NCBI GenBank assembly: GCA_016875915.1
Contig: VGOM01000005.1
Location: forward strand, 23,418-87,417
From: Chloroflexota bacterium
GTDB lineage: Bacteria > Chloroflexota > Dehalococcoidia > UBA2247 > RBG-13-53-26
DNA: 64,000 bases
Direction of reading: 5' to 3'
Part shown: piece by piece, positions 34,000-57,578 of the stretch
Position numbering within the stretch: position 1 is the first letter of the stretch
Layout of the letters: the number at the start of each line of letters is the position of its first letter
Notes under the pieces: model-generated
What the model saw: the letters and a program-made list of their open reading frames with translations, nothing else
The model's database searches: none
Told to the model about the DNA's origin: nothing
Position numbers and translations under genes: made by a program

Positions 34000-34821
34000 C
34001 TAGCTGTGGGACTTGGCCGCCACGGAGTCCACCTGGGCCTTCTGGGCCACCTTCTCGGCGGCGATCACCGCCGCACCCACCGCCCCGGCGATCTGGGGAT
34101 CCATGGGCAGCTTCTTGATCTTCACCTTCAGCCGCTGCTCCAGGGCTTTGGCCAGGGTCTCATTCTTGGCACAGCCTCCGGTGAGGACGACGTCCTCCAC
34201 CAGTCCCACCCGGCCCACCATGCCGCTCAATCTGCCGGCCACCGAGTTGTTCAGGCCGGCAATAATATCGGCCAGATCGACATCCTCGTTGATCAGGGTG
34301 ATCACCTCGGATTCGGCGAAGACGCTGCACTGGCTGCTGATCACCGCCGGCTTCCGGGCGTCCAGTCCCAGTGTAGAGAGTTGCTCCAGGCTGATATGGA
34401 GCGTGCGGGCCATGGCCTCATAGAACTTGCCCGTCCCCGCGGCGCACTTGTCGTTCATGACGAACTCCAGGACCTTGCCCTTCTCGGTGACGGACATCAC
34501 CTTGCAGTCCTGTCCGCCGATATCGACCACCGTCCTCACCGTCGGGAGCAGCCACTGCGCCCCCCTGGCATGGCAGGTGATCTCCGAGATGTTCTCGTTG
34601 GCAAAGTCGACCTTCAGCCGGCCATAGCCCGTGCCCACGACATAGTCCAGGTCCTCCAGTTTGGACAGCCCGGCCTTCTGCAGTGCCTCATCCATGGCCT
34701 TCCGCGCCGTCACGTCAGGCTTGACGGCGGAAGGGGTGATTGAGAATGAGACAACCTGTCCATCCTTCATGACCACCGCCTTACCGGTGGCGGAACCTAT
34801 GTCGCAGCCTCCAACGATCAT
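34000..34821 (-). CDS. CoA-substrate-specific enzyme activase (HgdC/BadF/BadG/BcrA/BcrD ATPase family), module A
   Basis: ASKHA fold; bridging-cluster cysteines in NDKCAAGTGKF and SSQCSVFAESEV; ATG 34821 with GGAGAAG SD. Confidence 0.8.
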   Translation of the reverse strand: MIVGGCDIGSATGKAVVMKDGQVVSFSITPSAVKPDVTARKAMDEALQKAGLSKLEDLDYVVGTGYGRLKVDFANENISEITCHARGAQWLLPTVRTVVDIGGQDCKVMSVTEKGKVLEFVMNDKCAAGTGKFYEAMARTLHISLEQLSTLGLDARKPAVISSQCSVFAESEVITLINEDVDLADIIAGLNNSVAGRLSGMVGRVGLVEDVVLTGGCAKNETLAKALEQRLKVKIKKLPMDPQIAGAVGAAVIAAEKVAQKAQVDSVAAKSHS

Positions 34822-36195: not shown

Positions 36196-36200
36196 ACTGC

Positions 36201-37644: not shown

Positions 37645-38799
37645 ATAGCCAGTACCCTGGAAACGCTGCGCGAAATCCGGGCAGTCAACTCCTCTTTCCC
37701 TTGCCCTGATCCCGTCAGATCCTGGAAAGAGCAGGGGAAGAGGGTCATCGCCTTCCAGTGCACCTATGTCCCTGAGGAGGTCGTTCACGCCGCCGGCATA
37801 CTCCCCATCAGGCTGACCGGCGATTCCGAAGAGCCCTCCCTGGAGGAAGCCAATGCCTATATGTACATCAACACCTGCTCGTTCGTCCGGGGCTGCCTCG
37901 ACCTGGTCCTGAAGAAACGCTATCAGTTCCTGGACGGCTTCGTGTCCGGGTCGACCTGCGACTGCCCCCGTCGCCTGACCGATGTGTGGCAGCACTACGA
38001 TTTCACTCCCTTTGTGTACATCCTGGATGTGCCCCGCAAGATGACCCAGGCAGCTCATGCCCTCTACCGGGAGGAGGTGCAGGGACTGAAGAAGCGGATC
38101 GAGGAGTCCTTCGGCCTGCATATCTCCGATGAGGCACTGCGCCGTTCAATCGAGACGTACAACCGCACCAGAACGCTGCTGAAGAAGCTCTATGAGCTGC
38201 GCAAGTCCGACTGCCCCCCGGTCACCGGGGCCGAGGTCCTGGAGGTCCTGGATGCCGGCTTCAAGATGCCCAGGGAGGAGTTCAACAGGGTTCTGGAGAG
38301 ATTGGTCGATGAAGCCGGCAAGGGAGAGAGAACGGTGCCGGCAAGGTTCCGGTTGATGATCAGCGGCAGCCCGCTGAACAACCCGGAGTTCATCCGGGGC
38401 ATCGAGGAACTCGGGGGGCTGGTGGTCGTGGACGAGCTGTGCACCGGGGTCCGTCACTGGTGGGACCTGGTGGACGAGAGCCCCGGCGTCGATCCCGTGG
38501 AGGCCCTCTCCCGCCGCTATCTGAACAACTTCCCCTGCCCGCGGATGTATCCGCCGGAGGAGCGGTTCGACAGGGCGGTGCAACTGGTCAGGGAATACCG
38601 TGTTGACGGGGTGATCAGCGAGGTGGTGCGCTACTGCGTCCATTGTGCCCATGATCAGCCCCTGCTGAAGCGGACCCTGGAGGGAGAGGGCGTCCCGGTG
38701 CTGGAGCTGAGCCTGGAGTACGGAGCTTCCGGAACAGGCCAGATACGGACCCGGGTGCAGGCCTTTCTGGAGATGCTGGAGGCCAGGTCAGGGAGATGA
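37645..38799 (+). CDS. HgdA/BcrB/BadD-like subunit (HGD-D family), module B; non-canonical start
   Basis: Frame opens after TGA at 37633-35; no ATG/GTG/TTG before conserved N-terminus; ATA at 37645 sits 4 nt after GAGGGAG SD where ATG is expected (ATA GCC AGT ACC CTG ~ M A S T L). Confidence 0.65.
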   Translation: MASTLETLREIRAVNSSFPCPDPVRSWKEQGKRVIAFQCTYVPEEVVHAAGILPIRLTGDSEEPSLEEANAYMYINTCSFVRGCLDLVLKKRYQFLDGFVSGSTCDCPRRLTDVWQHYDFTPFVYILDVPRKMTQAAHALYREEVQGLKKRIEESFGLHISDEALRRSIETYNRTRTLLKKLYELRKSDCPPVTGAEVLEVLDAGFKMPREEFNRVLERLVDEAGKGERTVPARFRLMISGSPLNNPEFIRGIEELGGLVVVDELCTGVRHWWDLVDESPGVDPVEALSRRYLNNFPCPRMYPPEERFDRAVQLVREYRVDGVISEVVRYCVHCAHDQPLLKRTLEGEGVPVLELSLEYGASGTGQIRTRVQAFLEMLEARSGR

Positions 38800-40070
38800 C
38801 CACGACCGTCGCCGATACCGCCAAGCTGCGGCAGATTGTGGAAGTGGTGGATGCGGTGGCCAAGCTGCAGAGGCAGCGCCTGGAACGGGAGCCCGACGCC
38901 GTCAACTACCAGATCGTGGTCCGCTATTTCAACAACGTGCTCACAGCCAAAGAGGAAGGCAAGCTGGTCGTGGCCCACACTCCCATGATTGCCCCGGAGA
39001 TCCTCTTTGCCATGGATATCGTTCCCCTCCAGCTCGAGTTCGCCGCTACCCTGGCGGCGCAGATCATCCCGGGGATTCAGGAATGCTTCAGCACCGCGGC
39101 GACGGCCGGGCTGGCCCCGGAGATTTGCTCCGCTCAGAGACTCATCGCCGGACAGGCCATCCAGAGGTGGCTGCCCCGGCCCGACGCCCTGATCTGGAGC
39201 AACCAGGTCTGTGACAACACCGCCAAAGGCGGCAATCTCCTGGCTGAGGTCTTCGACTGCCCCAGCTTCTTCCTGGACCGCCCCTATCAGTTCTCAGAGA
39301 GGGGAGTGCACTACTTCACGGAGCAACTGAAGGAGCTCATCCGTTTCCTGGAGAACCTCACCGGCCGGAGGATGGACTGGGACCGATTCTCTGAGGTGAT
39401 GGAATACTCCCGCCGCCTGCAGGACCTGCACCGGGAGATCCGGGAGTTGCGCAAGGCCGTGCCCTGTCCCTGGCGCAACCTGTGGTTCATACACATGCAG
39501 GGCACTGAGATGTATTGGGCCGGGAGCCCGGAGGCCATCGCCCACCTGGAGGCCATAAGGGACGCCGCCAGGCAGAAGGTCACCGAGGGCAAAGGGTATG
39601 TCCCCGTTGAGAGATTCCGCATCCTGACCATCTTCGTCCCCCCGACATCCGGCTGGGCAATGATGGGCTGGATGCAGGGCAAGCACGGGGCCGTCTGCGT
39701 CGCCGAGCCCTATTTCTCATTCCGGGATGGGGAGGCCATCGACCCGGCCAAACCCCTGCAGAGCCTGGCCCGGAAGTGCTTCTACTGCCCCATCTGCGGT
39801 CCCATGCACGGGCCGGCCAGCGAAGGGATTGTCCGCGATACGGTGCGAGATGCTGTAGACTACAAGGCGGAAGGGGCGGTGTGTTTTGCCAGCATCGGCT
39901 GCCGGCAGACAGACGCTTGCATCAGAATGCTCAAGGAGTCTCTGCAGGAGAAAGCGGGCATCCCCATGCTGGTCCTGGACAATGACACCTACGACCCCAC
40001 CTACGTACCGGAGGATCAACTGAGGGACAAGCTGGACGAGTTCTTCGAGTTGCTGGAGGGGCGGAAGTAG
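38796..40070 (+). CDS. HgdB/BcrC/BadE-like subunit (HGD-D family), module B
   Basis: ATGA overlap with upstream gene; AGGGAG SD; paralog of 34876..36195. Confidence 0.75.
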   Translation: MTTTVADTAKLRQIVEVVDAVAKLQRQRLEREPDAVNYQIVVRYFNNVLTAKEEGKLVVAHTPMIAPEILFAMDIVPLQLEFAATLAAQIIPGIQECFSTAATAGLAPEICSAQRLIAGQAIQRWLPRPDALIWSNQVCDNTAKGGNLLAEVFDCPSFFLDRPYQFSERGVHYFTEQLKELIRFLENLTGRRMDWDRFSEVMEYSRRLQDLHREIRELRKAVPCPWRNLWFIHMQGTEMYWAGSPEAIAHLEAIRDAARQKVTEGKGYVPVERFRILTIFVPPTSGWAMMGWMQGKHGAVCVAEPYFSFRDGEAIDPAKPLQSLARKCFYCPICGPMHGPASEGIVRDTVRDAVDYKAEGAVCFASIGCRQTDACIRMLKESLQEKAGIPMLVLDNDTYDPTYVPEDQLRDKLDEFFELLEGRK

Positions 40071-43314: not shown

Positions 43315-44610
43315 TCACGATCCCAGAATAGCCTCAAGGTCTTCTTCCGGCGTGGTGATCGGCTTCAGATCGAAATTGTCCTGGAGCGCCTTGAGCACGT
43401 TGGGGGTGATCCAAGCCGGCAGTGTCGGGCCGATCCGGATGCCCTTCACGCCCAGATACAGAAGTGAGAGCAGGATAGCCACCGCCTTCTGCTCAAACCA
43501 GGACAAAACCAAGGACAGAGGGAGCTCATTCACGCTGCAATTGAAGGCCTCCGCCAGGGCAGCGGCCACCCTGACAGCAGAGTGGGCATCGTTGCACTGG
43601 CCGATGTCTATCAGGCGGGGGATGCCGTCAATCGAGCCGAAGTCCAGGTCGTTGAAGCGGTACTTGCCGCAGGCCAGCGTCAGGATGACGCAATCCTGGG
43701 GCACCTTCTCCGCCAGTTCGGTGTAGTAGTTCCGACCACTCCTGGCCCCGTCGCATCCTCCAATGAGGAAGAAGTGGCGTATCTTGCCCGCCTTCACCGC
43801 GCCCACGACCTTGCCCGCCAGCGACAGAATGGCGGTGTGGTGGAAGCCGGTGGTCAGGGTCTTCCCTTCCTTGTGATGCAGCTTGGGCAGCGCCAGGGCC
43901 TTCCGGACCACCGGACTGAAGTCCCCATCAGCGATGTGGGTTGCCCCGGGCACGGCAACAACCCCGGTGGTGAACAGCCGGTCCTCATAGCTGCCCTTCT
44001 TCGGGATCAGCACGCAGTTGGTGGTGGCCAGTATCGGGCCGGGGAAATCGGCGAATTCCCGCTTCTGGTCCTGCCAGGCTCTGCCGAAGTTGCCGGCCAA
44101 GTGCTTGAACTTCCTCAGCTCGGGATAGGCATGGGCCGGCAGCATCTCCCCATGCGTGTAGACCCTGACCCCGCTGCCTTCGCTCTGCTCCAGTAGCTGG
44201 CGGAGGTCAAGCAGGTCATGCCCCGTCACCAGGATTCCATGGCCTGACTCCCTGCCCGTGGACACAGCCACCGGGCCCGGGGTGCCGAAGCGGTCGACAT
44301 GAGCCTGGTCCAGCACCTCCATTGCTTTGAGGTTGATCTTGCCGCACTCGAGGACCAAGTTCAACAGGCTACCGAGATCGAAGTTGACGTTGGTCAGGGT
44401 GGAGAACAAGGCTCTGGAGTAGAACTCAGCCACCTCCGGGTCGGCGTATCCCAGCCTTCTGGCATGGTAGTCATAGGCAGCGATCCCCTTGATCCCGTAG
44501 ACCAGGGTATCCTGCAGACTGCTGACGTCTTCGTTCTTGCCGCACGCCCCTGTGCTGGCGCATCCGGTGCCCGCTACCGTTTGCTCACATTGATTGCAGA
44601 ACATACTCAT
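43315..44610 (-). CDS. hcp: Hybrid cluster protein (hydroxylamine reductase) Hcp
   Basis: N-terminal MFCNQCEQTVAGTGCASTGAC cubane-cluster motif (C-x2-C-x8-C-x5-C); AAAGGAG SD before ATG 44610. Confidence 0.9.
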   Translation of the reverse strand: MSMFCNQCEQTVAGTGCASTGACGKNEDVSSLQDTLVYGIKGIAAYDYHARRLGYADPEVAEFYSRALFSTLTNVNFDLGSLLNLVLECGKINLKAMEVLDQAHVDRFGTPGPVAVSTGRESGHGILVTGHDLLDLRQLLEQSEGSGVRVYTHGEMLPAHAYPELRKFKHLAGNFGRAWQDQKREFADFPGPILATTNCVLIPKKGSYEDRLFTTGVVAVPGATHIADGDFSPVVRKALALPKLHHKEGKTLTTGFHHTAILSLAGKVVGAVKAGKIRHFFLIGGCDGARSGRNYYTELAEKVPQDCVILTLACGKYRFNDLDFGSIDGIPRLIDIGQCNDAHSAVRVAAALAEAFNCSVNELPLSLVLSWFEQKAVAILLSLLYLGVKGIRIGPTLPAWITPNVLKALQDNFDLKPITTPEEDLEAILGS

Positions 44611-44806
44611 TGACCCGCTCCTTTCCGTTTTCGGTGATGAGCCGAGTCTAGCCCGAGCCAGACCAGCGCGTAAATGATCTGGATCATACCGGATCAAGCC
44701 CCCTGAACGTCCGCGCCCCTGCCGGCCAACCCACCGCAGTCCGGGGCGACGGTTGTGCTAAGATGGAAGGTAGCAGCCGTCGTGCTGAAGGAAGGAGGGT
44801 TTCGTC

Positions 44807-46236: not shown

Positions 46237-47988
46237 TCAGTCGCTGCGCTCCACCACCACCAGGATGGCGTCGGCGCGAACGAAGTCCCCCTTGTGGACC
46301 CTGATCTCCTTGACCACACCGCGGCAGGGGGAGCGGATGTCGTTCTGCATCTTCATTGACTCGATCATCAGCACCACCGTGCCCTCCTCAATCCTGTCAC
46401 CAACCTTCACCGTCAGCGTGGCCACTATCCCTGGCATGGGAGACAGCAGGGCCACCTGGCGGGCTTCCCCGGTCCTCCCCTCACCTGCCTCCAGCGCCGC
46501 GCCGCCCTCCGCGCTGGCCCTACCCTGTCCGGCCAGGGCCACCCCGCTCCCGATCCTTGCGCCCTGTTCAGCATTCACCGGAGAGGGGACGCTCCTCCTC
46601 TCGGGCACACGCTGCAGAGGCGCTGGCTCACCGCCTTCGGGGAGCGCCTCTCCCACCAGTTCACCGCGGAGGAATTGCGCCGCGATCCGGGGATAGAGTG
46701 CGTAGGTGATCAGGTCTTCCTCCCGCTTGAAGATGCCCAGCTTCTGCCCTTCAGCCCGCATCTTCTCCAGTTCGGGTTCCAGCAGGTCCGCGGGGCGCAC
46801 CTCGATGGGTACCTCGTCGCCCACCACGGCCTTCCTCACTTCTTCGTCCATCTTGCCGGCAGGCCGACCATAGTGACCGAGGAGGTAGTTCTTCACTTCC
46901 TGGGTCACCACGCTATAGCGCCGCCCTGATATGACATTGAGCACCGCCTGGGTGCCCACTATCTGGCTCGTGGGAGTCACCAGTGGAGGATAGCCCAGTT
47001 CCGTTCGAACGCGAGGGACTTCCTGCAGCACCTCATCCAGTCTGTCCAGCGCCTTCTGCTCCTTGAGCTGGCTGAGCAGGTTGGAGAGCATCCCCCCCGG
47101 TATCTGGTGGATGAGAACCCCGATATCGGGGCGCACCGCCTTGGGGCTCAGCAGGCCGCTGTACTCCCGCATGACCCTGACGAAATACTCATTGATCTCG
47201 TTGAGCAACTCCAGGTCTAGCCGGGCATCGTAGCGGGTTCCCTTGAAGGCGGCCACCGTGCTCTCCGTGGCCGGCTGTGAAGCCCCCCCGCTGAACACCG
47301 AGATCGCCGTATCCAGGATCCTGGCCCCGGCCAGGACTGCGGCGTAGTAGCTCATCGGGGCCATGCCGCTGGTGCAGTGCGAGTGCAGGGCAATGGGCGC
47401 CTTCAGCCGGCTTTTCATGTGCCGCATCAACTGCCCGGCCATCGCCGGGGTGATCAGTCCGGCCATGTCCTTGATGCAGACGGAATCGCAGCCCCGCTTC
47501 TGCAGCCGTTCGGCCATCCTGGCAAAGCCGTCCGGGGTGTGTAGCGGGCTAGTGGTGTAGCAGATGGTCCCCTGAACGTGCGCCCCATACTCCTTGGCCA
47601 CCCCTATGGCGAACTCCATGTTGCGGATGTCGTTCAGGGCATCGAAAATGCGGAAGACGTCCACACCATTCTTCACCGCCAGGCGAATGAACTCCCGGAC
47701 CACATCGTCGGGGTAGTGCCGGTAGCCCACCAGGTTCTGCCCCCGGAGCAGCATCTGCAGACGGGTGTTCTTGGCCCTGGCCCGCAGTGCCCTGAGACGC
47801 TCCCACGGATCTTCGTTCAAGTACCTGATGCAGGTGTCGAAGGTGGCGCCGCCCCACACCTCGAGCGAGAAGAAGCCCACCCTGTCCATCTTCTCCACAA
47901 TGGGAAGCATATCCCTGGTGCGCATTCGGGTGGCGATCAGGGATTGGTGCGCGTCGCGAAGCGTGGTGTCAGTGATCAGGATGCCCAT
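46237..47988 (-). CDS. Biotin-dependent carboxyltransferase with C-terminal biotinyl domain (oxaloacetate decarboxylase alpha / pyruvate carboxylase subunit B-like)
   Basis: N-terminal pyruvate-carboxyltransferase TIM barrel (ITDTTLRDAHQS), C-terminal biotinyl-lysine motif ESMKM. Confidence 0.8.
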   Translation of the reverse strand: MGILITDTTLRDAHQSLIATRMRTRDMLPIVEKMDRVGFFSLEVWGGATFDTCIRYLNEDPWERLRALRARAKNTRLQMLLRGQNLVGYRHYPDDVVREFIRLAVKNGVDVFRIFDALNDIRNMEFAIGVAKEYGAHVQGTICYTTSPLHTPDGFARMAERLQKRGCDSVCIKDMAGLITPAMAGQLMRHMKSRLKAPIALHSHCTSGMAPMSYYAAVLAGARILDTAISVFSGGASQPATESTVAAFKGTRYDARLDLELLNEINEYFVRVMREYSGLLSPKAVRPDIGVLIHQIPGGMLSNLLSQLKEQKALDRLDEVLQEVPRVRTELGYPPLVTPTSQIVGTQAVLNVISGRRYSVVTQEVKNYLLGHYGRPAGKMDEEVRKAVVGDEVPIEVRPADLLEPELEKMRAEGQKLGIFKREEDLITYALYPRIAAQFLRGELVGEALPEGGEPAPLQRVPERRSVPSPVNAEQGARIGSGVALAGQGRASAEGGAALEAGEGRTGEARQVALLSPMPGIVATLTVKVGDRIEEGTVVLMIESMKMQNDIRSPCRGVVKEIRVHKGDFVRADAILVVVERSD

Positions 47989-48168
47989 TCATTCCCCGCA
48001 CCGATGACCGTGATGGCCTGCGTTCCCGCCCTCTCAGCGGGAGGCGAGCCGTGCAGCCCGCCGCTTCCGGAAGCCCATCCCATCTTATCACACCAGCGAC
48101 TGAACCACGAATCGGGGTGAGAGGCCGCGGGGCTGCCTCCGCGGTCGGCCGGCTCACACCGGGGATCA

Positions 48169-48882
48169 TCACAGCTGCTCACGCGGTGCAGCCGGCCCAC
48201 CGGGTCGTCCGAAGAGAAGCCATCTGTTCAGATACATGAACGGGATGTTGACCAAGCCAACCAGCCACTTGGTGAACAGTTGTCCCTCGATCAGCGACCA
48301 GAGGGGCATGGTCCATGCGAAGGCTATGGTGACGAAGATGAAGGTATCGACGGTGAGCGAGGGTATGGAGCTGAAGACATTTCGGGCCCAGAGGTGCCTG
48401 CCTCCCGTCAAGCTCCTGAACCGGTCGTATATCCAGGCATCGAGGTTCTCACTGATCAGGAAGGCCACCCACGACCCCAGGGTGATCCGCGGCACCAGGC
48501 TGACGATGGCCTCCCAGGACTCCTGGTCGTCCCAGAATGACGCGGGGCTGAGCCGCGTGGCCAGCCAGAGGAAGAACACCATGGCCACCTGGGTGACGAA
48601 GGCGATCAGGATCATTCGGTGGACTTCCCCTCTGCCGAATCGCTCATTGACGATGTCCGTGAACAGGTAGGTCACCGAATAGACCAGGACAGCGGCAGGC
48701 GCAGTGACCGTGATCAAGCCCAGGTCGTACTCGGCGATCTTGGCCGCAGTGATCTGGCTGATGGCCACAAACAGCACATACAGCCCGATCAGCGCGTCGG
48801 GCTTGTCGAATCTCCTGGCGTACCAGGCCCCAAAGAGGGTGAAGCTGGTTATCCCCAGCACCCACAGAATGAGTTCCAGCAT
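48169..48882 (-). CDS. Queuosine precursor transporter, YhhQ/Vut (DUF165) family
   Basis: Six-TM protein with conserved YhhQ-like segments (YSVTYLFTDIVNERFG...). Confidence 0.7.
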   Translation of the reverse strand: MLELILWVLGITSFTLFGAWYARRFDKPDALIGLYVLFVAISQITAAKIAEYDLGLITVTAPAAVLVYSVTYLFTDIVNERFGRGEVHRMILIAFVTQVAMVFFLWLATRLSPASFWDDQESWEAIVSLVPRITLGSWVAFLISENLDAWIYDRFRSLTGGRHLWARNVFSSIPSLTVDTFIFVTIAFAWTMPLWSLIEGQLFTKWLVGLVNIPFMYLNRWLLFGRPGGPAAPREQL

Positions 48883-49137
48883 GTCCTCTCGCTTCCCGCC
48901 AGTTCACTGCCACCAGGGCAGGCTGCGCCTCCCCGGAAGATCAGAGTTGTTTATATCCTGCTTGGGGCCCAAAATCAATGCCAGCCATCCGGCAGCAGTG
49001 CCGAGCGGCGTTCTCACATTGGGGTGCGATGGTTTGCTTTGACGTCTGAGATGCCGTGGCAGTATCATAGACTTGCGCCGGCCGGGTGTTGGTTGTGTAT
49101 GCCCCGCCGGGTGCAGGACCTCCACGCAAGGGAGACC

Positions 49138-50739
49138 ATGGTTACCCGCGAGCAGCAGCTAGAGATAAAGGAGATACTCCGCAAGTCCCAGCTCTTCTGG
49201 AAACTGACCGACGACCAACTGGAGAAGGTCGTGGCGCTGGGTCAGGGCGAGTGCTTCAACCGGGGGGAGTATATCGCCGTCGCCGGCGAGCCTGCCCGGA
49301 AGCTTTACGTTGTCGTCCAGGGCAAAGTAGCCTTGGAGATCGAGATCCGCGTCGGCTCACGGACCAGAAAACAGGCCACCATCGACCTCGTGGGCGTCGG
49401 CGAGGTCTTCGGGTGGTCCGCGCTGACCGAGAAGGGCATCCTCACCATGTCGGCTATGGCCAGCGACTACACCAGGGTGGTGGGGTTCGGTGCGGAGGAG
49501 CTGCGGCGGCTGTGGAATGAGGATGCCGACATCTGCCGGGCCCTGGCAGATGACTTCGTCAATCTGGTTTCCGACAGGCTGGCGCACACCAAGCGGACCC
49601 TGGCCCATGTCCTGTCCGTAGCCTCCCACGACTTGCGGGCCCCTCTGGCCACGGTTCAGAGCTGTGTGGACGTTCTGCTGGGCGGATTCGCCGGACCACT
49701 GTCCACCAGGCAGACGGAGCTGCTGGCCGGGAGCAGACAGCGCCTGCTCGACCTGATGAGCCTCATCGACAACATCCTCGACATCTCCTACATCGAGATC
49801 AGGCAGGACGACTTCGAGAAGGTGTCACTGCCCGACCTGGTGGACAGATCCATCGGCGACGTACAAGGCCTGGCAGAGAGGAAGAACATACGCGTCAAGA
49901 ACGCCCTGTCCCCCACCGTCCCCGAGGTGATGGGCGTCCCGAAGCGTTTGCGCCAGGTGCTCACCAATCTGCTGGGCAACGCCGTCAAGTACACTCCCGT
50001 CGACGGCAGCGTCACGGTGCAGTCCTCTGAGGCGGAGGAGTCGGTCCAGGTGGAGATCTGCGACACGGGAATAGGCATCGCTGCCGATGATCTGCACCGG
50101 GTCTTCGACGACTTCTACCGGGGGTCCAGAGGCGACGCGGATGGAGCCGGACTGGGACTCTCCATCGCCAAGAGGATTGTAGAGTCGCACGGCGGACTGA
50201 TCTGGGCTGAAAGCCCCTGTCCCGACACGGGGAAGGGCACAAAGGTCACCGTGGCTCTGCCCAGGATGGCGGCGGTGGCCCCCGCCCAGGTTGAGCCCGA
50301 GACCACAGCCATCAAGGGAGCCAAGATCCTCATCGCTGACGACGACCCGGACATGCTCAGGGTGACCGCCCTGGTTCTGGAGTCGGATGGCTTCCAGACC
50401 TCGGCCGCCCGCGACGGCATAGAGGCGCTGGCCAAGGTGGAGGCGGAGGAGCCCGACCTGCTGATCCTGGACCTCCTCATGCCGGAGCTGGATGGATTCG
50501 AGGTCCTGAAGCGGCTGGGGGAGCGCAGGAGAACGGGCCGGGGCCGGATCCCTGTCCTTGTGGTCAGTGCCATCAAGGAGGGCAGCAGCCGGCGGCGCTA
50601 TGAGCTGGAGACCAAGACGGAACTGGGCGCCGATGGCTACATCGAAAAACCGATATCCCCTCCTCTGCTGTTGAAGGAGGTTGCCAGGATTCTGACGGAG
50701 AGGAAGTCCAAGGTCTGCACCGAGGCCAAGAAGAACTGA
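49138..50739 (+). CDS. Hybrid sensor histidine kinase with N-terminal cyclic-nucleotide-binding (Crp-like) domain and C-terminal receiver
   Basis: cNMP-binding domain (GEYIAVAGEPARKLYVVVQGKV), HisKA H-box SHDLRAPL, HATPase_c (DTGIGI, GLGLSIAK), REC (ILIADDDPD...DLLMP). Confidence 0.85.
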   Translation: MVTREQQLEIKEILRKSQLFWKLTDDQLEKVVALGQGECFNRGEYIAVAGEPARKLYVVVQGKVALEIEIRVGSRTRKQATIDLVGVGEVFGWSALTEKGILTMSAMASDYTRVVGFGAEELRRLWNEDADICRALADDFVNLVSDRLAHTKRTLAHVLSVASHDLRAPLATVQSCVDVLLGGFAGPLSTRQTELLAGSRQRLLDLMSLIDNILDISYIEIRQDDFEKVSLPDLVDRSIGDVQGLAERKNIRVKNALSPTVPEVMGVPKRLRQVLTNLLGNAVKYTPVDGSVTVQSSEAEESVQVEICDTGIGIAADDLHRVFDDFYRGSRGDADGAGLGLSIAKRIVESHGGLIWAESPCPDTGKGTKVTVALPRMAAVAPAQVEPETTAIKGAKILIADDDPDMLRVTALVLESDGFQTSAARDGIEALAKVEAEEPDLLILDLLMPELDGFEVLKRLGERRRTGRGRIPVLVVSAIKEGSSRRRYELETKTELGADGYIEKPISPPLLLKEVARILTERKSKVCTEAKKN

Positions 50740-50753
50740 AGGAGGAGCCACCC

Positions 50754-51155
50754 ATGTCGAAGCAAGCCAAGATACTGATCGTTGACGATGACCCAGTCTT
50801 CGTTGATTCAACGAAGGCGGTGCTTGAGAGCAAGAACTACCAGGTAACCTCGGCCGGTGACGGTGACGAGGGGATACGCAAGGCGGCAGAGGTGAGACCG
50901 GACCTGATCATCCTGGACGTGATCATGCCCACCAAGGACGGGTTCACCGCCTGCGAGCAACTGAAGAAGGACCCACGGTTCTCGGACACCCCGGTGATCA
51001 TCCTGACCAGCTTCGCCGAGAAGAGGGGGGAGAGCAACATCCCGGTAAGTGCCGGGCTCAGCCTTGAAGCGGAAGCGTACGTGGACAAGCCCGTCGCTCC
51101 CCAGAAGCTGCTAGACACCGTTGCGAAGTTGCTGGCTAGAGCCAGCTCTCACTAG
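50754..51155 (+). CDS. Single-domain response regulator (CheY-like)
   Basis: ILIVDDDP, DLIILDVIMP phospho-Asp region, no output domain. Confidence 0.85.
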   Translation: MSKQAKILIVDDDPVFVDSTKAVLESKNYQVTSAGDGDEGIRKAAEVRPDLIILDVIMPTKDGFTACEQLKKDPRFSDTPVIILTSFAEKRGESNIPVSAGLSLEAEAYVDKPVAPQKLLDTVAKLLARASSH

Positions 51156-51337
51156 CCATCGGTTCCCCCGTTGACAGAGCCTTGCAGAGCGTTGAGGAGG
51201 CACTGCCGCCGCCCGGGTTGCTTCGAACCGCTGCTTCTGCGCTACGGGCTTCTGTCAGTGGATGATCATGACCGGACAGAGCTTGTCAGGATGACTCCTC
51301 TCCCCACAGACAAGCGCCGCGTCTTCCTCTGGCACCG

Positions 51338-51994
51338 ATGGCGTCCCCGGACAGCGTGATGATAGAGCAATACGACATAGAAGTGAGACTTCTGGCGATC
51401 ACCGGGCTGACTCCCTCAGAGACGACCCTGGACCGCCAGCCCGACCTGCCTCCCTCTGAGCTGCTCATCGAGTACGCCGGCCGGCTCTGCTGGGGCACCA
51501 CCGACAAGGTGGGCACTACTCCGGGCCGCATCGAGGGCTGGCTGGCCCAGGGCCATGAGTCGGTCATCGAGCATGCCGCCGCCACCTTCTACGTCAGGGC
51601 CAGCCGCGTGCTCACCCACGAACTGGTCCGCCACAGGCTGGCCAGCTACAGCCAGAGAAGTCAGCGGTACGTCAGGGAATCTAGTCCCCGGTACGTCACG
51701 CCCCCGGAGCTGGCCGCCGGTCAGCGCGGTGGCGACGTCTTTGAGAAGACCATGCTGGAGGCTTGGGCGGCCTATTCGCGACTCCTTCAGCTTGGCGTCA
51801 AGCCGGAGATCGCCCGCTACGTTCTCCCCAGTGCCTGCGAGACAGAGATAGTCATGACCATGAACTTCAGGGAACTGCGGCATTTCATCAAGCTCAGGAC
51901 CAGCAAGAGATCGCTCCCGGAGATGCGGGCCGTCGCCGGCGAAATGAAGAGGATCATGCAGCAGCAAGCCCCCAGGGTGTTCGGGGATCTGTGA
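51338..51994 (+). CDS. thyX: FAD-dependent thymidylate synthase ThyX
   Basis: ThyX signature RHRLASYSQRSQRY (RHRx7S). Confidence 0.85.
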   Translation: MASPDSVMIEQYDIEVRLLAITGLTPSETTLDRQPDLPPSELLIEYAGRLCWGTTDKVGTTPGRIEGWLAQGHESVIEHAAATFYVRASRVLTHELVRHRLASYSQRSQRYVRESSPRYVTPPELAAGQRGGDVFEKTMLEAWAAYSRLLQLGVKPEIARYVLPSACETEIVMTMNFRELRHFIKLRTSKRSLPEMRAVAGEMKRIMQQQAPRVFGDL

Positions 51995-52069
51995 CGACGG
52001 AGGGGGTGAGATGACCTGCAGGGCACCGGCCGGTCGGTCGCACCCGCAGAGACCATCGGGCAAAGTATT

Positions 52070-52099
52070 TTGTGGCAGCGAAACCATTTCTGCTATAAT
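52070..52099 (+). promoter_or_regulatory. Putative sigma70-type promoter (-35 TTGTGG, 18-bp spacer, extended -10 TGCTATAAT) for pseudo-REC::metF fusion
   Basis: TTGTGG 52070-75, TGCTATAAT 52091-99, ~28 nt before SD GGGAGAG. Confidence 0.45.
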
Positions 52100-52126
52100 C
52101 AGCGTTGACTACAGCTTACAGGGAGA

Positions 52127-54163
52127 GTGGCAGTGAACAACCTCAACCAGGCAGACCGGGTCCTTGTGATCGCCAGCGCGCGGGACCTGGTGGATATGAT
52201 CAAGGAAGGAGCCGGCGGCAATCTCGAAGTCACCTACGCCGCCAATCAGAAAGAGGGGCTGGAGAAGGCCAGGAAGGATCTGCCCGCCATCATCGTTCTG
52301 GGCTACCTGGAGCCGCAGGGCACCGCCTTCCAGCTCCATCGCAAGCTGCAGGAGGGATGGATCACCAAGAACATCCCTCTTCTGATAGTCGATCTGCAGT
52401 CGGACGACTCCCGCCCCGTGTTGAGCATGGAGGAGGGTCTGCAAATGGAGGCCGACGAGTATCTCGCCCTCCGTCGAGGGGACGGGCAGGTGTCCCTGAC
52501 CCGGCTGGCCGAGCCCATCGCCAGACTGAGGGAGAAGCTCCACACCAGACTGAAGACCACGGCGAACATCGTCAGGGAGGCTATCCTCGACCCGAACACC
52601 TTCTGCGTCACCTGGGAACAGGTCCCCGGCCGGGGAGCCTTCGAAATGCAGCAGGAGGAACTGGTCGAGAACGCCAGGAGGGCTGCCCGGAAGGGTAAGA
52701 TCCATGCCGTGAGCGTCACCGACAACCCCGGCGGGAATCCGGCCATCTCCACCGAGATACTGTGCACCGAGGTGCGGAAACTGGGCATCGAGCCGCTGGT
52801 GCACCTCGCCTTCAGGGACAAGAACAGGAATGAGTGCGAGAGCATCCTCTACGGCCTCGCCGGCCTTGGCGTGAGGAATCTGCTGCTGCTCACAGGCGAC
52901 TACCCTTCAAGCGGCGGGTTCAAGGGCAGATCCAAGCCGGTGTTCGACTTGGACTCCGTCCATGGCCTGCAGCTGGTGCAGATGATGAACAACGGAATGG
53001 AACATGAGGCCATGGGCAAGAAGACCACCCTGGCCCCCACCGACTTCTTCGCCGGCACATCTGTCTCGCCCTTCAAGCAGTCAGAGGCCGAGTTGATGGG
53101 ACAGTACTTCAAGCTGAAGAAGAAGATCGAATCCGGCGCCGACTTCGTGATCACCCAGCTTGGCTATGACGCCAGGAAGCTCCATGAGGTGCTCACCTGG
53201 CTCAAGGTCCACGGCTACAGCACGCCGGTGATGTCCAACATCTATGTGCTGCCTCTGGGGGCGGCCAAGATCATGAACACCAATCAGATCCCGGGCTGCG
53301 TGGTCACCGACAAGCTGCTGGAAGAGGTGGCACAAGAGGCCAAAGCCCCGGACAGGGGCAGGTCCGCCAGGCTCACCCGGGCGGCCAAGATGTACGCCGT
53401 GGCCAAGGGCATGGGATGTGCCGGAGCCCACATCGGGGGCCATGGCCTGACATACGAGGCGGTGGAGGAGATCATCGGCAAGGGCGAGGAGATGGCCAAG
53501 GACTGGAGGACTCTGGTCGCCCAGTTCGACTACCCGCAGAGAGACGGCTTCTATTACTTCGAGAGGGACCCCCAGACGGGGCTGAACCTGGAGACCCCGG
53601 CAGCCAGGCCGTCAAGAGGCTCACGTACGCCCATCTACGAGTTCTCCAGGCTGGCCCACGTCACCCTCTTCAATCCCAAGAGCGTGGTGTTCAAGGGGTT
53701 CAGGCCGGTGGCCAGGCGGCTCGATTCCTCGTCGACTCTGGAGTCGGCCTTCGGCTTCTTCGAGCACCTGACCAAGGTGGCCCTCTTCGGTTGCATGAAC
53801 TGCGGCGATTGCTCCCTGTTCGACGTCGCCTTCCTCTGCCCCATGTCTCAATGCCCCAAGAACCAGAGAAACGGGCCCTGCGGGGGCAGCTACGAAGGAT
53901 GGTGCGAGGTCCACACGGACAAGAAGTGCGTCTGGGTGCGCGCCTATGAGAGGCTGAAGAAGCACAAGGAAGAGGAGGAGATCGGGGACAACTGCGTTCC
54001 TCCCTGCAACTGGGAACTGATGGGCACCCCGTCCTGGCTCAATTTCTACCTGGGCAGGGATCACTCGGCCAAGAGGCTGGGGATACAACCGCCTCAAGAG
54101 AAGGCGAAGCCCGCCGAGAGCGACAAGGCCAAGGAGGCCAAGGAGACCAAGAAGGCAGCATAG
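52127..54163 (+). CDS. metF: Methylenetetrahydrofolate reductase fused to N-terminal pseudo-receiver domain and C-terminal MetV-like Cys-rich (zinc-ribbon) domain
   Basis: Residues ~1-130 REC-like fold lacking acceptor Asp (IIVLGYLEP); central MTHFR TIM barrel; C-terminal FGCMNCGDCSLFDVAFLCPMSQCPKNQRNGPCGG; GTG start (alt GTG 52133). Confidence 0.75.
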   Translation: MAVNNLNQADRVLVIASARDLVDMIKEGAGGNLEVTYAANQKEGLEKARKDLPAIIVLGYLEPQGTAFQLHRKLQEGWITKNIPLLIVDLQSDDSRPVLSMEEGLQMEADEYLALRRGDGQVSLTRLAEPIARLREKLHTRLKTTANIVREAILDPNTFCVTWEQVPGRGAFEMQQEELVENARRAARKGKIHAVSVTDNPGGNPAISTEILCTEVRKLGIEPLVHLAFRDKNRNECESILYGLAGLGVRNLLLLTGDYPSSGGFKGRSKPVFDLDSVHGLQLVQMMNNGMEHEAMGKKTTLAPTDFFAGTSVSPFKQSEAELMGQYFKLKKKIESGADFVITQLGYDARKLHEVLTWLKVHGYSTPVMSNIYVLPLGAAKIMNTNQIPGCVVTDKLLEEVAQEAKAPDRGRSARLTRAAKMYAVAKGMGCAGAHIGGHGLTYEAVEEIIGKGEEMAKDWRTLVAQFDYPQRDGFYYFERDPQTGLNLETPAARPSRGSRTPIYEFSRLAHVTLFNPKSVVFKGFRPVARRLDSSSTLESAFGFFEHLTKVALFGCMNCGDCSLFDVAFLCPMSQCPKNQRNGPCGGSYEGWCEVHTDKKCVWVRAYERLKKHKEEEEIGDNCVPPCNWELMGTPSWLNFYLGRDHSAKRLGIQPPQEKAKPAESDKAKEAKETKKAA

Positions 54164-54212
54164 CCGTCGGGAGGGTATCTTCCTTTGCGGTGAATGCGTT
54201 GGAGGTTGAGAG

Positions 54213-55103
54213 ATGCATCTTTCGGAGTTCTTCAGAAACGGCCGCTTCGTCATTACCTGTGAGATAACGCCCCCAAAGGGGGTGAACACCGACGAGTTTC
54301 TGAACACGGTGGACATGGTCAAGAACCATGTTGACGCCGTCAATATCGGCGACAACCAGAGGGCGGTGATGCGGGCGGCGGCCCTGGCCGTCTGCCACCT
54401 GCTCAAGCAGAAGAACATCGAGCCGGTCATGGAGTTGACCGCCCGCGACAGGAACCGCATCGCCATTCAATCCGATCTGCTCGGGGCCAGCATGGTCGGC
54501 ATCGAGAACATACTCCTTGTCAGCGGGTATCCCCCGGCGGTGGGCGACCACGCCCAGGCCAAGCCGGTGTATGACTTCGACTCCGTATCGCTGGTGAGCG
54601 CCGCCAAGTCCCTCACCAAGGGGCAGGATGTCACCGGCCACGCCCTGGATGGTGCTCCCGACTTCTGCATCGGGGTGGTCGCCAATCCCGGACTGAAGCC
54701 CGCCGAGCCCCATCTGGAGAGGCTGAAGCAGAAGATCGCCGAAGGGGCTCAGTTCATTCAGACGCAGACCGTCTATGACCTGGAGGTCCTGGAGCGCTTC
54801 ATGGAGGCGGTCAGCAAGTTCAATGTGCCGGTGATGGTGGGCCACACCATGCTCCGGTCCGCCAGCATGGCCAGCTTCATGAACAGCAACCTCCCCGGAG
54901 TCTGCGTGCCGGACAAGCTCATCAGGGAACTGGAGGGACTCCCCAAGCAGAAGATAGCCGAGACCAGCCTGCAACTGTCGATCGACCTTCTCAGGAGGAT
55001 GAAGCCCCTGTGCCAGGGCATTCATTTCATGGTTGCCGGGTGGGAGCAGCATATGCCCACGGTCGCAGAGGCGGTGGCCGGCAAGAGACCTCTCCGGCCA
55101 TAG
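54213..55103 (+). CDS. metF: Methylenetetrahydrofolate reductase (stand-alone second copy)
   Basis: MTHFR family TIM barrel (296 aa), paralogous to core of upstream fusion. Confidence 0.8.
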   Translation: MHLSEFFRNGRFVITCEITPPKGVNTDEFLNTVDMVKNHVDAVNIGDNQRAVMRAAALAVCHLLKQKNIEPVMELTARDRNRIAIQSDLLGASMVGIENILLVSGYPPAVGDHAQAKPVYDFDSVSLVSAAKSLTKGQDVTGHALDGAPDFCIGVVANPGLKPAEPHLERLKQKIAEGAQFIQTQTVYDLEVLERFMEAVSKFNVPVMVGHTMLRSASMASFMNSNLPGVCVPDKLIRELEGLPKQKIAETSLQLSIDLLRRMKPLCQGIHFMVAGWEQHMPTVAEAVAGKRPLRP

Positions 55104-55272
55104 TTGCAGCGACACCGCCAGTTGCAAACGACCGAATTTTGCGGTAATATTCCCAGCCAAGGTTAAAGTTCAGGTTGTCGATCTAATGTCGAGTTTCCTG
55201 CAGGACTCAATCAGCATTGGATGACCGAACTCTAGCCAATTTTTGTGCTTGTCAGAAGAAGGAGGTCATCTG

Positions 55273-55581
55273 ATGGGTTACACGGACAAGCAAATTGAAT
55301 GCAAGGAGTGCGGGGCCAAGTTCGCCTTCACCGCTTCCGAGCAGGAGTTCTACGCCTCCAAGGGGTACACCAACGACCCCAAGCGCTGTCCCACCTGCCG
55401 CCAGGCCAGGAAATCGCAGAGACACACTGAAGGCGGCTATTCCGGATCGACCCGCCAGATGTTCCCTGCCGTCTGCGCCCAGTGCGGCAAGGATACCCAG
55501 GTGCCCTTCGAGCCCAGATCGGAAAGGCCGGTATACTGTAGCGATTGCTACACCAAGGTTCGCCAGAGCAACAGGTTCTAG
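55273..55581 (+). CDS. Tandem zinc-ribbon protein (zf-trcl-like, two CxxC...CxxC modules)
   Basis: IECKECGAKFAFTASEQEFYASKGYTNDPKRCPTCRQARK and AVCAQCGKDTQVPFEPRSERPVYCSDCY; AAGGAGG SD before ATG 55273. Confidence 0.65.
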   Translation: MGYTDKQIECKECGAKFAFTASEQEFYASKGYTNDPKRCPTCRQARKSQRHTEGGYSGSTRQMFPAVCAQCGKDTQVPFEPRSERPVYCSDCYTKVRQSNRF

Positions 55582-55660
55582 CCCCGGGGGCAATCGTCAG
55601 CGCCCGCCTGCGATCTCACCTGTTCCCATAGCCCTGGCATTCAGGTCAGAGTGGCAGACC

Positions 55661-55682
55661 GCAGCACAGTGACCTGTGCTGC
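55661..55682. terminator. Hairpin (9-bp stem GCAGCACAG/CTGTGCTGC, 4-nt loop) between convergent zf-trcl and rtcB genes
   Basis: Perfect inverted repeat 10 nt downstream of rtcB stop. Confidence 0.4.
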
Positions 55683-55691
55683 CCCACACGG

Positions 55692-57149
55692 TCAACCCTT
55701 GACCACGCCTATGGGATAGGCCTTGACCACCTTCCGGCAGAGCCCGGCAAGGTGGCAGACCTCAACCACCTCCGCCACATCCTTGTACGCTGCCGAGGAT
55801 TCCTCGGCCAGGCCTCCCCTGCTGGCTGCCCTAGCCAGGATGCCTCGGGAGGCCAGTTCCGAGGCCACGTCGGCGTCCCTGACCCCCTTCCTAGCTGCAT
55901 GACGGCTCTTCGTCCGGCCCGCTCCATGACAGACAGAGCCAAAGGACTCCCTGATGGCGCCTTCAGCGCCGACGGCCAGAAACGAGTACCGTCCCATGTC
56001 CCCGGGGATAAGCACCGGTTGCCCTGTCTGTCGGTATCTCGGGGGAAGATCGGGGTGGCCAGCGGGGAAGGCCCGGGTGGCCCCCTTACGGTGCACGCAC
56101 AACCTGGTCTTCCGGCCCTCCACTTCGTAGGTCTCTATCTTGGCAATGTTGTGAGCCACGTCGTAGACCATCTCCAGGCCGATATCCCTCAGGCTGCGGC
56201 CGAAGACCGACATGAAGCACTCCCTGGCCCAGTGGGTAATGCACTGCCGGTTGGCCCAGGCGTAGTTGGCGGCGCAGGCCATGGCGGCCAGGTAGTCCCT
56301 CCCCTCCGGCGACTTCACCGGGGCGCAGGCCAACTCGCGGTCAGGGACCTCGATCTGATACCGCTGCATCACATCCCTGAGGGTCCTGACATACTCGTCG
56401 CAGACCTGATGGCCCAGGCCGCGGCTGCCGGTATGGACCAGGAGCAGTACCTGGCCCACCGCATCGATGCCCATGCCCCGGGCCACTGCCGGCTCATAGA
56501 TCTCACCGACCACCTGCACCTCGAGGAAGTGGTTCCCCGACCCAAGGGTTCCCGACTGAGGGAGCCCGCGCTCCTTGGCCCTGACGCTCACCTTGTCGGC
56601 GTCCGCCCCCTCAAGACAGCCGCCCTCCTCGCATACCTCCAGGTCCTCCTTCGTGCCGAAGCCGCGCTTCACCGCCCAGCGGGCGCCCTGAGTCAGGATC
56701 TCGTCGATCTCCTTCTTGCCCACCTTGATCTTGCCCGTCGAACCCAGCCCCGAGGGGATGTTGACTGAGAACTGCGCCAGCAGCTTCTCCAGCCTGGGCC
56801 GCATCTCTGATTCGCGCAGGTTGGTGCGCAGCAGCCTCACCCCGCAGTTGATGTCGTAGCCCACCCCTCCCGGGGAGACCACCCCATCGTCGACCCTGGT
56901 GGCGGCCACCCCGCCTATGGGAAAGCCATAGCCCCAGTGGATATCGGGCATGGCCAGGGAATGACCCACGATCCCGGGCAGGAAGGCCACATTGGCCACC
57001 TGCTCCGCCGCCTGCTCTTCCCGGATGCCCTCCAGCATGGGTTCGCTGGCGTAGATCAGCCCCGGGACCCTCATCCCCGGCTTGTGGCTCGCGGGGATCT
57101 CCCAGCGGTAGTCGTCGATCTTCCGCAGCGTTCCCTCCCAGCGTGCCAT
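55692..57149 (-). CDS. rtcB: RNA-splicing ligase RtcB
   Basis: Canonical RtcB segments (GYDINCGVRLL, HAGRTKSR-like metal/GTP-binding motifs). Confidence 0.95.
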   Translation of the reverse strand: MARWEGTLRKIDDYRWEIPASHKPGMRVPGLIYASEPMLEGIREEQAAEQVANVAFLPGIVGHSLAMPDIHWGYGFPIGGVAATRVDDGVVSPGGVGYDINCGVRLLRTNLRESEMRPRLEKLLAQFSVNIPSGLGSTGKIKVGKKEIDEILTQGARWAVKRGFGTKEDLEVCEEGGCLEGADADKVSVRAKERGLPQSGTLGSGNHFLEVQVVGEIYEPAVARGMGIDAVGQVLLLVHTGSRGLGHQVCDEYVRTLRDVMQRYQIEVPDRELACAPVKSPEGRDYLAAMACAANYAWANRQCITHWARECFMSVFGRSLRDIGLEMVYDVAHNIAKIETYEVEGRKTRLCVHRKGATRAFPAGHPDLPPRYRQTGQPVLIPGDMGRYSFLAVGAEGAIRESFGSVCHGAGRTKSRHAARKGVRDADVASELASRGILARAASRGGLAEESSAAYKDVAEVVEVCHLAGLCRKVVKAYPIGVVKG

Positions 57150-57161
57150 GGCTATCCCCCT

Positions 57162-57578
57162 CTAGACATCGAAGATCACCCGGATGCTGTGGCCGTCATC
57201 CTCCCGGGTCACCCTGAGCATGTGGTACGTCGCCGCCTTGATCCCGCCCTTCAGGTTGTGACGCCGGGGGTTCAGCTTCTCACCGTAGCACCGGGCCTTC
57301 AGTCCGGTATCGGTCAGCTCCGCCACCTCGAATCGCCTGAACAGCAGCCCCTCCACGTCGAGGAGGAAGAGCAGTTCGTTCAGCCACGACACCGCCAGGG
57401 TTTCGCAGTCCCCCGCCTTCACCTCCACCTCCCGGCAGACCCGTTCCTCCACCGCCTCCACATCGGCCATCAGCGAGGACATGGCCCAGGCCAGATTGGC
57501 GAAGGCCTCTTTCAGATCCGCCCCATAGGCCACCACACCCGTGTCGGCGGTGTGCTCGATAACGTCAAACCTCTTCAA
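57162..57578 (-). CDS. Archease (RtcB activator)
   Basis: ~138 aa, N-terminal IEHTADTG motif typical of archease; directly upstream of rtcB. Confidence 0.85.
   Translation of the reverse strand: MKRFDVIEHTADTGVVAYGADLKEAFANLAWAMSSLMADVEAVEERVCREVEVKAGDCETLAVSWLNELLFLLDVEGLLFRRFEVAELTDTGLKARCYGEKLNPRRHNLKGGIKAATYHMLRVTREDDGHSIRVIFDV

Follow-up and report, generated by a model that had tools for sequence, protein, structure and literature searches.

The 64,000-nucleotide stretch of DNA analysed here (hereafter the window) comes from a Chloroflexota bacterium of the Dehalococcoidia (assembly GCA_016875915.1, contig VGOM01000005.1, positions 23,418 to 87,417 of the forward strand). Within it, ORF calling places six plus-strand open reading frames (ORFs) between two minus-strand genes at 48169-48882 and 55692-57149, and one of the six encodes a 678-amino-acid (aa) protein in which a receiver-like (REC) domain without a phospho-acceptor aspartate, a methylenetetrahydrofolate reductase (MTHFR) barrel related to MetF and a cysteine-rich domain related to the MetV subunit of acetogens are joined in a single chain. 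Its gene lies among genes for a hybrid histidine kinase, a single-domain response regulator, a thymidylate synthase and a second MetF; an earlier note on this DNA had named these five ORFs, and we recovered all of them on the plus strand at the positions it gave. The features of the locus are listed below.

49039..49068, plus strand: candidate sigma-70-like promoter 5' of the kinase gene (TTGACG-18-TATCAT, 10/12 matches; consensus match only)
49138..50739, plus strand: soluble hybrid histidine kinase, 533 aa (Pfam cNMP_binding, HisKA, HATPase_c and Response_reg)
50754..51155, plus strand: single-domain response regulator, 133 aa (Response_reg, 88 bits)
51338..51994, plus strand: thyX, flavin-dependent thymidylate synthase (Thy1, 200 bits; TIGR02170, 156 bits)
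52072..52099, plus strand: promoter-like site with an extended -10 (TG-n-TATAAT), directly 5' of the three-domain gene (consensus match only)
52127..54163, plus strand: three-domain protein, 678 aa (Pfam MTHFR and DUF5981/MTHFR_C)
52127..52561, plus strand: aspartate-less pseudo-receiver, residues 1-145 of the 678-aa protein (phmmer, alignment and AlphaFold model)
52586..53446, plus strand: MTHFR (beta-alpha)8 barrel, residues ~154-440 (PF02219, 77.5 bits)
53447..53743, plus strand: helical linker, residues ~441-539 (conserved in the alignment; helices in the model)
53744..54016, plus strand: MetV-like Cys-rich domain, residues 540-630 (PF12225, 98 bits)
54213..55103, plus strand: MetF paralogue (MetF2), 296 aa (PF02219, 116 bits)
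55273..55581, plus strand: small zinc-ribbon protein, zf_Tbcl and zf_Tbcl_2, CxxC-x17-CxxC (Pfam)

The N-terminal domain of the 678-aa protein (the gene for which could start at a GTG at 52133 instead of at 52127) gave no match to the receiver profile PF00072 even at E<=1. A phmmer search with its 145 residues against 1.8 billion representatives returned 909 matches, which include Pfam-confirmed REC domains of hybrid kinases (P0144, E 7.6e-13; P0166, E 4.5e-10), and receivers in the PDB match it by sequence as well (3t6k, E 1e-5). Stand-alone relatives of the domain score up to 43.7 bits with PF00072, bridging the homology to receivers. When modelled alone with AlphaFold (predicted local distance difference test score, pLDDT, 80.8), the domain adopts a (beta-alpha)5 fold in the order beta1-alpha1...beta5-alpha5, and the best PDB matches to this model are all receivers (MicA, YycF, PhoB, RR468 and the FrzS pseudo-receiver), with template modelling (TM) scores of ~0.72-0.80. 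We also considered a flavodoxin or B12-binding domain, both of the same fold class, and rejected them, as the matches are to receivers only and there is no flavodoxin P-loop or DxHxxG motif.

When aligned with the window's own two genuine REC domains, the domain proves to have lost all five phospho-transfer residues: the acidic pair DD is replaced by A/S-S, the phospho-accepting Asp by Gly59, the Thr by Asp89 and the Lys by Leu. By the definition in PMC12632262 these losses make it an aspartate-less pseudo-receiver, and such a receiver cannot be phosphorylated. Gly59 at the phospho-site is invariant in the family, as are L13, V14, P53, G77 and W78 in the homologue alignment, and the motifs LGYLEPxG and EGWITKNIPLLVVD recur; this strong conservation indicates a domain under selection and no decaying remnant. 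The earlier suggestion of a REC-like region without its phospho-acceptor is therefore borne out, and the worry attached to it, that alignment might show the region not to be REC-like, is removed by homology to receivers in both sequence and structure. As Pfam misses the receiver, the precomputed annotation of every homologue consists of PF02219 and PF12225 only, and a search of CDART or InterPro for REC+MTHFR architectures would return nothing.

The rest of the protein is well covered by known families. The MTHFR profile (cut-off 24 bits) matches residues 154-411 and the DUF5981/MTHFR_C profile (cut-off 23 bits) residues 540-630, and there is no family match for the linker between barrel and C-terminal domain. 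In the AlphaFold model of the entire protein (pLDDT 74.6), the barrel is a (beta-alpha)8 fold with Foldseek TM scores of 0.81 to T. thermophilus MTHFR (1v93) and 0.79-0.82 to E. coli MetF chains. It retains the equivalents of E. coli Glu28, Thr59, His88, Asp120 and Gln183 (in TWEQ, VTD, VHLA, TGDY and ITQ, respectively), and so do the six other family members that we aligned (seven sampled in all); the numbering of the E. coli MetF reference sequence used reproduces the literature positions E28, D120, A177, Q183 and F223. In the E. coli enzyme Glu28 serves as catalytic acid and the pterin is hydrogen-bonded by both Asp120 and Gln183; the Asp120Asn mutant retains 0.3% of kcat (PMC11094777).

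The C-terminal domain contains eight cysteines (556, 559, 562, 571, 576, 585, 593 and 601) that are invariant among 37 homologues, and its core is 46% identical over 65 aa to a canonical 226-aa MetV (E 3e-18), in agreement with its previous description as MetV-like. The Cys-rich stretch at residues 556-598 is modelled with low confidence (pLDDT <50), and a look for a solved MetV structure, by PDB sequence search with the domain, gave no match. Taken together, profile scores, retained residues and folds uphold the division of the protein into a pseudo-receiver, a MetF-like barrel and a MetV-like Cys-rich domain. The best-supported assignment, made on sequence grounds, is that of a putative single-chain MetF::MetV-type methylenetetrahydrofolate (CH2-THF) reductase, whose cofactors and enzyme activity we infer.

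The fusion recurs widely. Each of the 120 best database clusters covers 85-100% of the query, at 60-94% identity and with lengths of 579-728 aa, and a genome scan with one genome per species yielded at least 570 relatives, the nearest of which are in uncultured Chloroflexota metagenome-assembled genomes (MAGs; bin_27, 87% identity, and RBG_13_53_26, 83%). An exact look-up of the window's protein returned no identical record. The best 80 loci and four others were examined (84 in total, identified here by L numbers where needed): 63 encode the three-domain ORF and 21 a two-domain form of ~520 aa without the receiver. The three-domain form is spread over at least five phyla (Chloroflexota/Dehalococcoidia, Deltaproteobacteria/Thermodesulfobacteriota, Spirochaetota, Acidobacteriota, Fibrobacterota, Calditrichales and others), and the receiver-less one is found in Desulfitobacterium, Desulfosporosinus, Syntrophothermus, Desulfobacteria and some Dehalococcoidia. 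In a rough neighbour-joining tree of the shared region, one receiver-less clade nests inside receiver-bearing clades, indicating that the receiver was gained or lost more than once. The earlier note had allowed that the fusion might be an assembly or frameshift artefact joining separate genes; this we consider virtually impossible, as the ORF, at 650-685 aa, runs uninterrupted in more than 120 protein clusters and in 62 independent genome assemblies, and the junction residues between the fused domains are conserved.

The MetF encoded directly after the three-domain gene, previously taken for a plain paralogue, has diverged at the active site: Thr59 is replaced by Gly, His88 by Glu and the pterin-binding Asp120 by Tyr, with Glu28 and Gln183 kept. 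Among 14 orthologues from the loci of the window's type (class A, below), the Asp120 position is Tyr in eight, His in four, Phe in one and Asp in one. The MetF partners of a second group of loci (class C) have Pro in place of Thr59 and Ser, Thr or Pro in place of Gln183, whereas canonical acetogen-type MetFs on the same contigs retain all these residues. As the class A and class C partners fall in different MetF clades, the pairing of a receiver-bearing reductase with a degenerate MetF looks recurrent. Most likely MetF2 is a non-catalytic partner subunit or one of altered specificity, and it may form a heteromer with the reductase. We also tried the possibility that it is a flavin-independent Mfr-type reductase, and found no sequence match to proteins of the 8bgr type.

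A third type of MetF (291 aa; Thr59 replaced by Pro, Gln183 lost and Asp120 kept) is paired with a 225-232 aa MetV on some deltaproteobacterial contigs (L018:18572-20317, minus strand; L020:17125-18842, minus strand; equivalents in L019 and L021-L023), where it lies between two-component genes and the canonical MetF. Contigs of this L018-L023 type carry three or four MTHFR paralogues within 12 kb.

The kinase, whose 533-aa gene is likewise called in L003, consists of a sensor with the cyclic-nucleotide (cNMP)-binding fold (residues 40-128; PF00027, 42.4 bits with a cut-off of 27.5), HisKA (158-220, H-box SHDLRAPL), HATPase_c (266-376) and a C-terminal REC domain (397-515). It had been described as cNMP-sensing, a label that now appears unproven: the phosphate-binding-cassette Arg that contacts the cyclic phosphate (Arg82 of CRP) is Met or Asn in 15/15 orthologous kinases, Met in the window's, so that sensing of cyclic nucleotides is not established. 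Domains of this fold bind other effectors, for example in CooA, FNR, NtcA and CprK, and the predicted sensor has the fold but probably binds something else. The single-domain regulator, earlier called an orphan CheY, starts 14 nucleotides (nt) past the kinase stop codon and is its immediate neighbour. Its phospho-transfer residues (DD/D/T/K) are intact, as they are in all 28 of the neighbouring single-domain RECs, and it is 40-46% identical to its deltaproteobacterial and spirochaete counterparts in class C, 38% to the REC of the kinase and 27% to E. coli CheY.

To see how regularly such genes accompany the reductase, ORFs were called in all loci and searched with the window proteins, which allowed 62 receiver-bearing loci to be compared with 20 receiver-less ones. 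The density of two-component genes is 0.245 per kb up to 3 kb from receiver-bearing genes and 0.021 per kb at 5-10 kb, a ~12-fold difference. At least one lies within 3 kb in 37/62 receiver-bearing and 4/20 receiver-less loci (Fisher p 0.004, a value which, like the two that follow, overstates independence and significance because the loci are phylogenetically related). Within the same distance, single-domain receivers are present in 27/62 versus 1/20 loci (p 0.001), MetF paralogues in 25/62 versus 0/20 (p 0.0002), hybrid kinases with the cNMP fold, orthologues of the window's that adjoin the three-domain gene, in 16/62 versus 0/20, and thyX in 4/62 versus 0/20. All-against-all clustering of 650 flanking ORFs revealed no conserved neighbour family besides two-component proteins and MetF paralogues, and no hdrABC-mvhD or rnfC2 genes were found in the window's module, L001, L003 or L084.

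The arrangements fall into three classes. In class A (Chloroflexota and a Calditrichales MAG), a cNMP-fold hybrid kinase and a single-domain receiver, co-directional with the reductase gene or divergent from it, are followed by the reductase and then by MetF2 17-79 nt downstream. The reductase genes of class C (Deltaproteobacteria, Spirochaetes and others) are preceded by MetF2, often together with a single-domain receiver, and have PAS kinases downstream on the other strand. Class B (some Dehalococcoidia) has a GAF-PAS-HisKA_3 kinase and a NarL-type regulator divergent from the gene, and one or two stand-alone aspartate-less receivers of the same subfamily directly upstream of it. The linkage thus survives rearrangement, unrelated flanks (L001, L084) and a change of sensor type, from cNMP-fold hybrid kinases in Chloroflexota to PAS kinases in Deltaproteobacteria and Spirochaetes. 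The proposal that signalling genes are coupled to this MetF accordingly gains comparative support from several phyla and differing kinase types; its inclusion of thyX does not, since thyX is present only in the window and its close relatives (L003, L004 and L005). From its distribution, thyX is evidently a lineage-specific insert that joined the operon only in the window's lineage. A putative two-component system flanking metF_1 has been mentioned in passing for the Anaerolineae single-cell genome DscP3 (PMC5736913). On the surface of the pseudo-receiver, nine positions are common to the clades linked to two-component genes, a pattern that is confounded by phylogeny.

The stand-alone aspartate-less receivers (134-160 aa, with Gly at the phospho-site and a C-terminal coiled coil) are encoded at L012:5652-6570, L016:9986-10907, L075:10001-10480, L011:10001-10492 and L014:3388-4233. 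Some of them pass the PF00072 cut-off, and a divergent NarL-type regulator and GAF-PAS-HisKA_3 kinase lie alongside.

We put at somewhat under an even chance the reading in which kinase, single-domain regulator, pseudo-receiver::MetF::MetV reductase and degenerate MetF form a self-contained module, with the kinase-regulator pair acting on the enzyme post-translationally via the pseudo-receiver. In such a module, electrons from a low-potential donor would enter through the MetV-like Fe-S domain and pass to a flavin in the MTHFR barrel, which would reduce CH2-THF to CH3-THF or work in reverse. The soluble hybrid kinase would phosphorylate the adjacent single-domain regulator, and the regulator, or the kinase itself, would dock on the pseudo-receiver by a REC-REC type contact, presumably a direct physical one, and thereby alter the activity or oligomeric state of the reductase. 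Since the signalling pair of classes A and C lacks a DNA-binding output, it must act by contact with a protein, and the pseudo-receiver is the only REC-type partner encoded nearby in the module. It is specifically beside the receiver-bearing form that single-domain receivers and stand-alone pseudo-receivers are found, and the position of the latter directly upstream of the gene in class B fits a module for interaction between REC folds. Precedent for pseudo-receivers acting through other two-component partners exists in the WhiI/BldM receiver heterodimer, and the same has been discussed for CmrRST (PMC12632262). In its strongest form, the reading has a phosphorelay acting directly on a central one-carbon enzyme, with the phosphorylated regulator or the kinase docking on the pseudo-receiver to gate electron flow into CH2-THF reduction, and REC folds serving more broadly as phospho-switchable docking tags between redox enzymes, an idea hinted at by the REC-tagged NiFe hydrogenase encoded beside the gene in L055 (below); this would be a step further, and we regard it as possible, if on the unlikely side.

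Several observations weigh against post-translational control by the adjacent pair. It would be unusual for a hybrid kinase to phosphorylate a separate regulator with no Hpt protein in between, and the relatedness of the loci tempers the statistics given above. In about 40% of the receiver-bearing loci, mainly those of Acidobacteriota and of one Chloroflexota clade, the 3 kb on either side contain no two-component gene, so the receiver has a function independent of an adjacent pair. Class B and some receiver-less loci (two of which have the GAF-PAS-HisKA_3 kinase as well) adjoin a NarL-type DNA-binding regulator, an arrangement that suggests transcriptional rather than post-translational control there. 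The last two points would equally suit a pseudo-receiver that is only a constitutive oligomerisation or structural domain, with the neighbouring two-component genes controlling expression (by an unlinked or NarL-type regulator) or something else. Many solved pseudo-receivers dimerise without phosphorylation (PMC12632262), and the three-domain gene is preceded by its own promoter-like site. However, the adjacent pair contains no DNA-binding domain in classes A and C, and single-domain RECs are enriched specifically beside the receiver-bearing forms, as the counts above indicate; we consider a purely structural role rather doubtful.

Information could also flow in the opposite direction, with the reductase as the sensor that reports redox or folate state through the pseudo-receiver to the kinase, and the regulator relaying the signal elsewhere. 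The kinase is soluble and its sole sensor domain has a non-canonical ligand pocket, both of which would suit such a scheme, and pseudo-receivers can regulate kinases, as in ShkA, whose pseudo-receiver reportedly binds c-di-GMP. Competitors for binding to kinases have likewise been discussed (PMC12632262). Nevertheless, the full conservation of catalytic residues and of the eight cysteines favours a working enzyme over a dedicated sensor (it could be both), and the loci examined contain no evident target on which the single-domain regulator could act downstream; we consider this direction of flow improbable. We find it more improbable still that the pseudo-receiver has nothing to do with phospho-signalling and serves as a docking site for a redox partner, such as a REC-tagged electron donor, or as a small-molecule pocket. 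What brings the redox partner to mind is L055: the operon that follows there is for a group-3b-like NiFe hydrogenase with an N-terminal REC on its beta/gamma subunits, and L053 and L063 have unfused homologues of these subunits close to the three-domain gene. Yet of 84 loci this is a fusion in one and adjacency in three, and the L055 REC keeps its phospho-acceptor residues and has a kinase gene adjacent, which fits equally well the phospho-dependent docking envisaged for the kinase-regulator pair.

The L055 operon spans 5709-10558 (plus strand) directly after the three-domain gene and encodes a HycI protease, then a 797-aa protein (intact REC, Fer4_22 and an AsrB-like FAD/NAD-binding module), then the NiFe hydrogenase small and large subunits; the histidine kinase is at 10605-11825 on the minus strand, opposite the REC-tagged group-3b-like hydrogenase.

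Elsewhere in the window, the zinc-ribbon gene directly after MetF2 is kept only in the closest relatives (L003 and L005) and is probably not part of the module. GC content is 60-67% throughout the window with no compositional break at the module, and an Rfam scan of 47500-56500 at E<=0.1 matched no riboswitch or other RNA family. An 836-aa pyruvate-formate-lyase-like glycyl radical enzyme is encoded at 7851-10361 (plus strand; PFL-like 596 bits, Gly_radical 90 bits), an acyl-CoA ligase at 17628-19238, a thiolase-like protein at 20015-21760, and two HGD-D family proteins, 2-hydroxyacyl-CoA dehydratase or benzoyl-CoA-reductase-like D components, at 34876-36456 (minus strand) and 38796-40070 (plus strand). 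The glycyl-radical enzyme, the 2-hydroxyacyl-CoA-dehydratase-like proteins and the acyl-CoA ligase point to an anaerobe; no Wood-Ljungdahl gene was found among ten large window ORFs scanned outside the module. A 460-aa ORF at 43315-44697 (minus strand) begins with CNQCEQT...C...C, which, judged by eye only, resembles hybrid-cluster protein (Hcp), and a 618-aa ORF at 32887-34743 (plus strand) has no Pfam match at E<=1e-5. Directly downstream of the six ORFs, on the opposite strand, is an RtcB RNA ligase and archease pair (55692-57578, minus strand), annotated as such in the near-identical locus L003.

The catalytic parts of the protein belong to the known MetF and MetV families, and the two-domain fusion is already in databases, where NCBI lists it under the generic name 'methylenetetrahydrofolate reductase C-terminal domain-containing protein'. 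What is new is the undetected pseudo-receiver, its specific association with two-component genes and its association with a degenerate MetF. Our literature search found no paper combining a receiver or pseudo-receiver with MTHFR, and Pfam does not detect the receiver, in keeping with the earlier view that the pseudo-REC MetF fusion is an undescribed architecture. With no Pfam match to reveal it, the pseudo-receiver lies hidden in hundreds of database entries called "methylenetetrahydrofolate reductase", and the adjacent degenerate MetF is probably mis-annotated in databases as an active enzyme. MetVF-type reductases catalyse an energetically critical step of the Wood-Ljungdahl and methyl-group pathways, and to our knowledge bacterial MTHFRs are generally held to be unregulated at the protein level, unlike the eukaryotic enzyme with its control by S-adenosylmethionine (SAM) and phosphorylation. 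If the proposal is correct, a widespread reductase that contains a signalling-type domain and is served by a dedicated kinase-regulator pair would mean that anaerobes gate one-carbon flux by signal transduction. The on/off switching of pseudo-receivers was called "a mystery" in a 2025 review (PMC12632262), and the one in this module has obvious candidate partners and an enzymatic output that should be easy to assay.

To relate the three-domain protein to known systems, we compared it with the MetVF-type (type II) reductases of acetogens (Clostridium ljungdahlii, C. formicoaceticum, Thermoanaerobacter kivui and Eubacterium callanderi), with which it shares the MetF barrel and the Cys-rich MetV module with the same Cys pattern. 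As in those enzymes, no NAD(P)H-binding partner is encoded nearby, and electrons should come from a low-potential donor (PMC8760232, PMC8515935); which donors the MetVF-type enzymes use physiologically, and how they are regulated, is a matter of continuing debate (PMC8760232). However, MetV is a separate ~225-aa subunit in acetogens and is fused C-terminally to the MetF barrel here, the barrel forms a distinct deep clade, a pseudo-receiver at the N-terminus and a degenerate MetF partner come in addition, and the gene lies outside Wood-Ljungdahl or hdr/mvhD/rnfC clusters. Closer relatives are the two-domain fusions of Desulfitobacterium, Desulfosporosinus, Syntrophothermus and some Dehalococcoidia, which have the same barrel, linker and MetV-like domain (55-64% identity over residues ~145-660) but lack the pseudo-receiver and the adjacent degenerate MetF and rarely have two-component neighbours; our search found no characterisation of these two-domain proteins. 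The eukaryotic MTHFRs (human, yeast and Chaetomium; structural matches 6fcx, 8qa4-6 and 8uy1/2) likewise combine an MTHFR barrel with an appended regulatory region, although theirs is a C-terminal SAM-binding domain with a phosphorylated N-terminal segment, whereas here a REC fold is N-terminal and electrons are predicted to enter via the Fe-S domain.

From the signalling side, the pseudo-receiver shares a REC fold without phospho-acceptor with the atypical regulators WhiI (with BldM), CmrT (in CmrRST), FrzS and ShkA (PMC12632262), and as in CmrRST it is encoded together with an otherwise normal kinase-regulator pair. It differs from all of these in being too diverged for PF00072 and in having a central one-carbon redox enzyme as its output in place of DNA binding, pilus control or kinase control. 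An N-terminal REC-fold domain also precedes a catalytic domain in CheB, PleD and RpfG-type proteins, but those receivers can be phosphorylated and have signalling enzymes as outputs, whereas the dead receiver described here is joined to a metabolic oxidoreductase as its output. If a phosphorelay does act on the reductase, this would be the first case of a two-component system with a folate or Wood-Ljungdahl-type oxidoreductase as its output.

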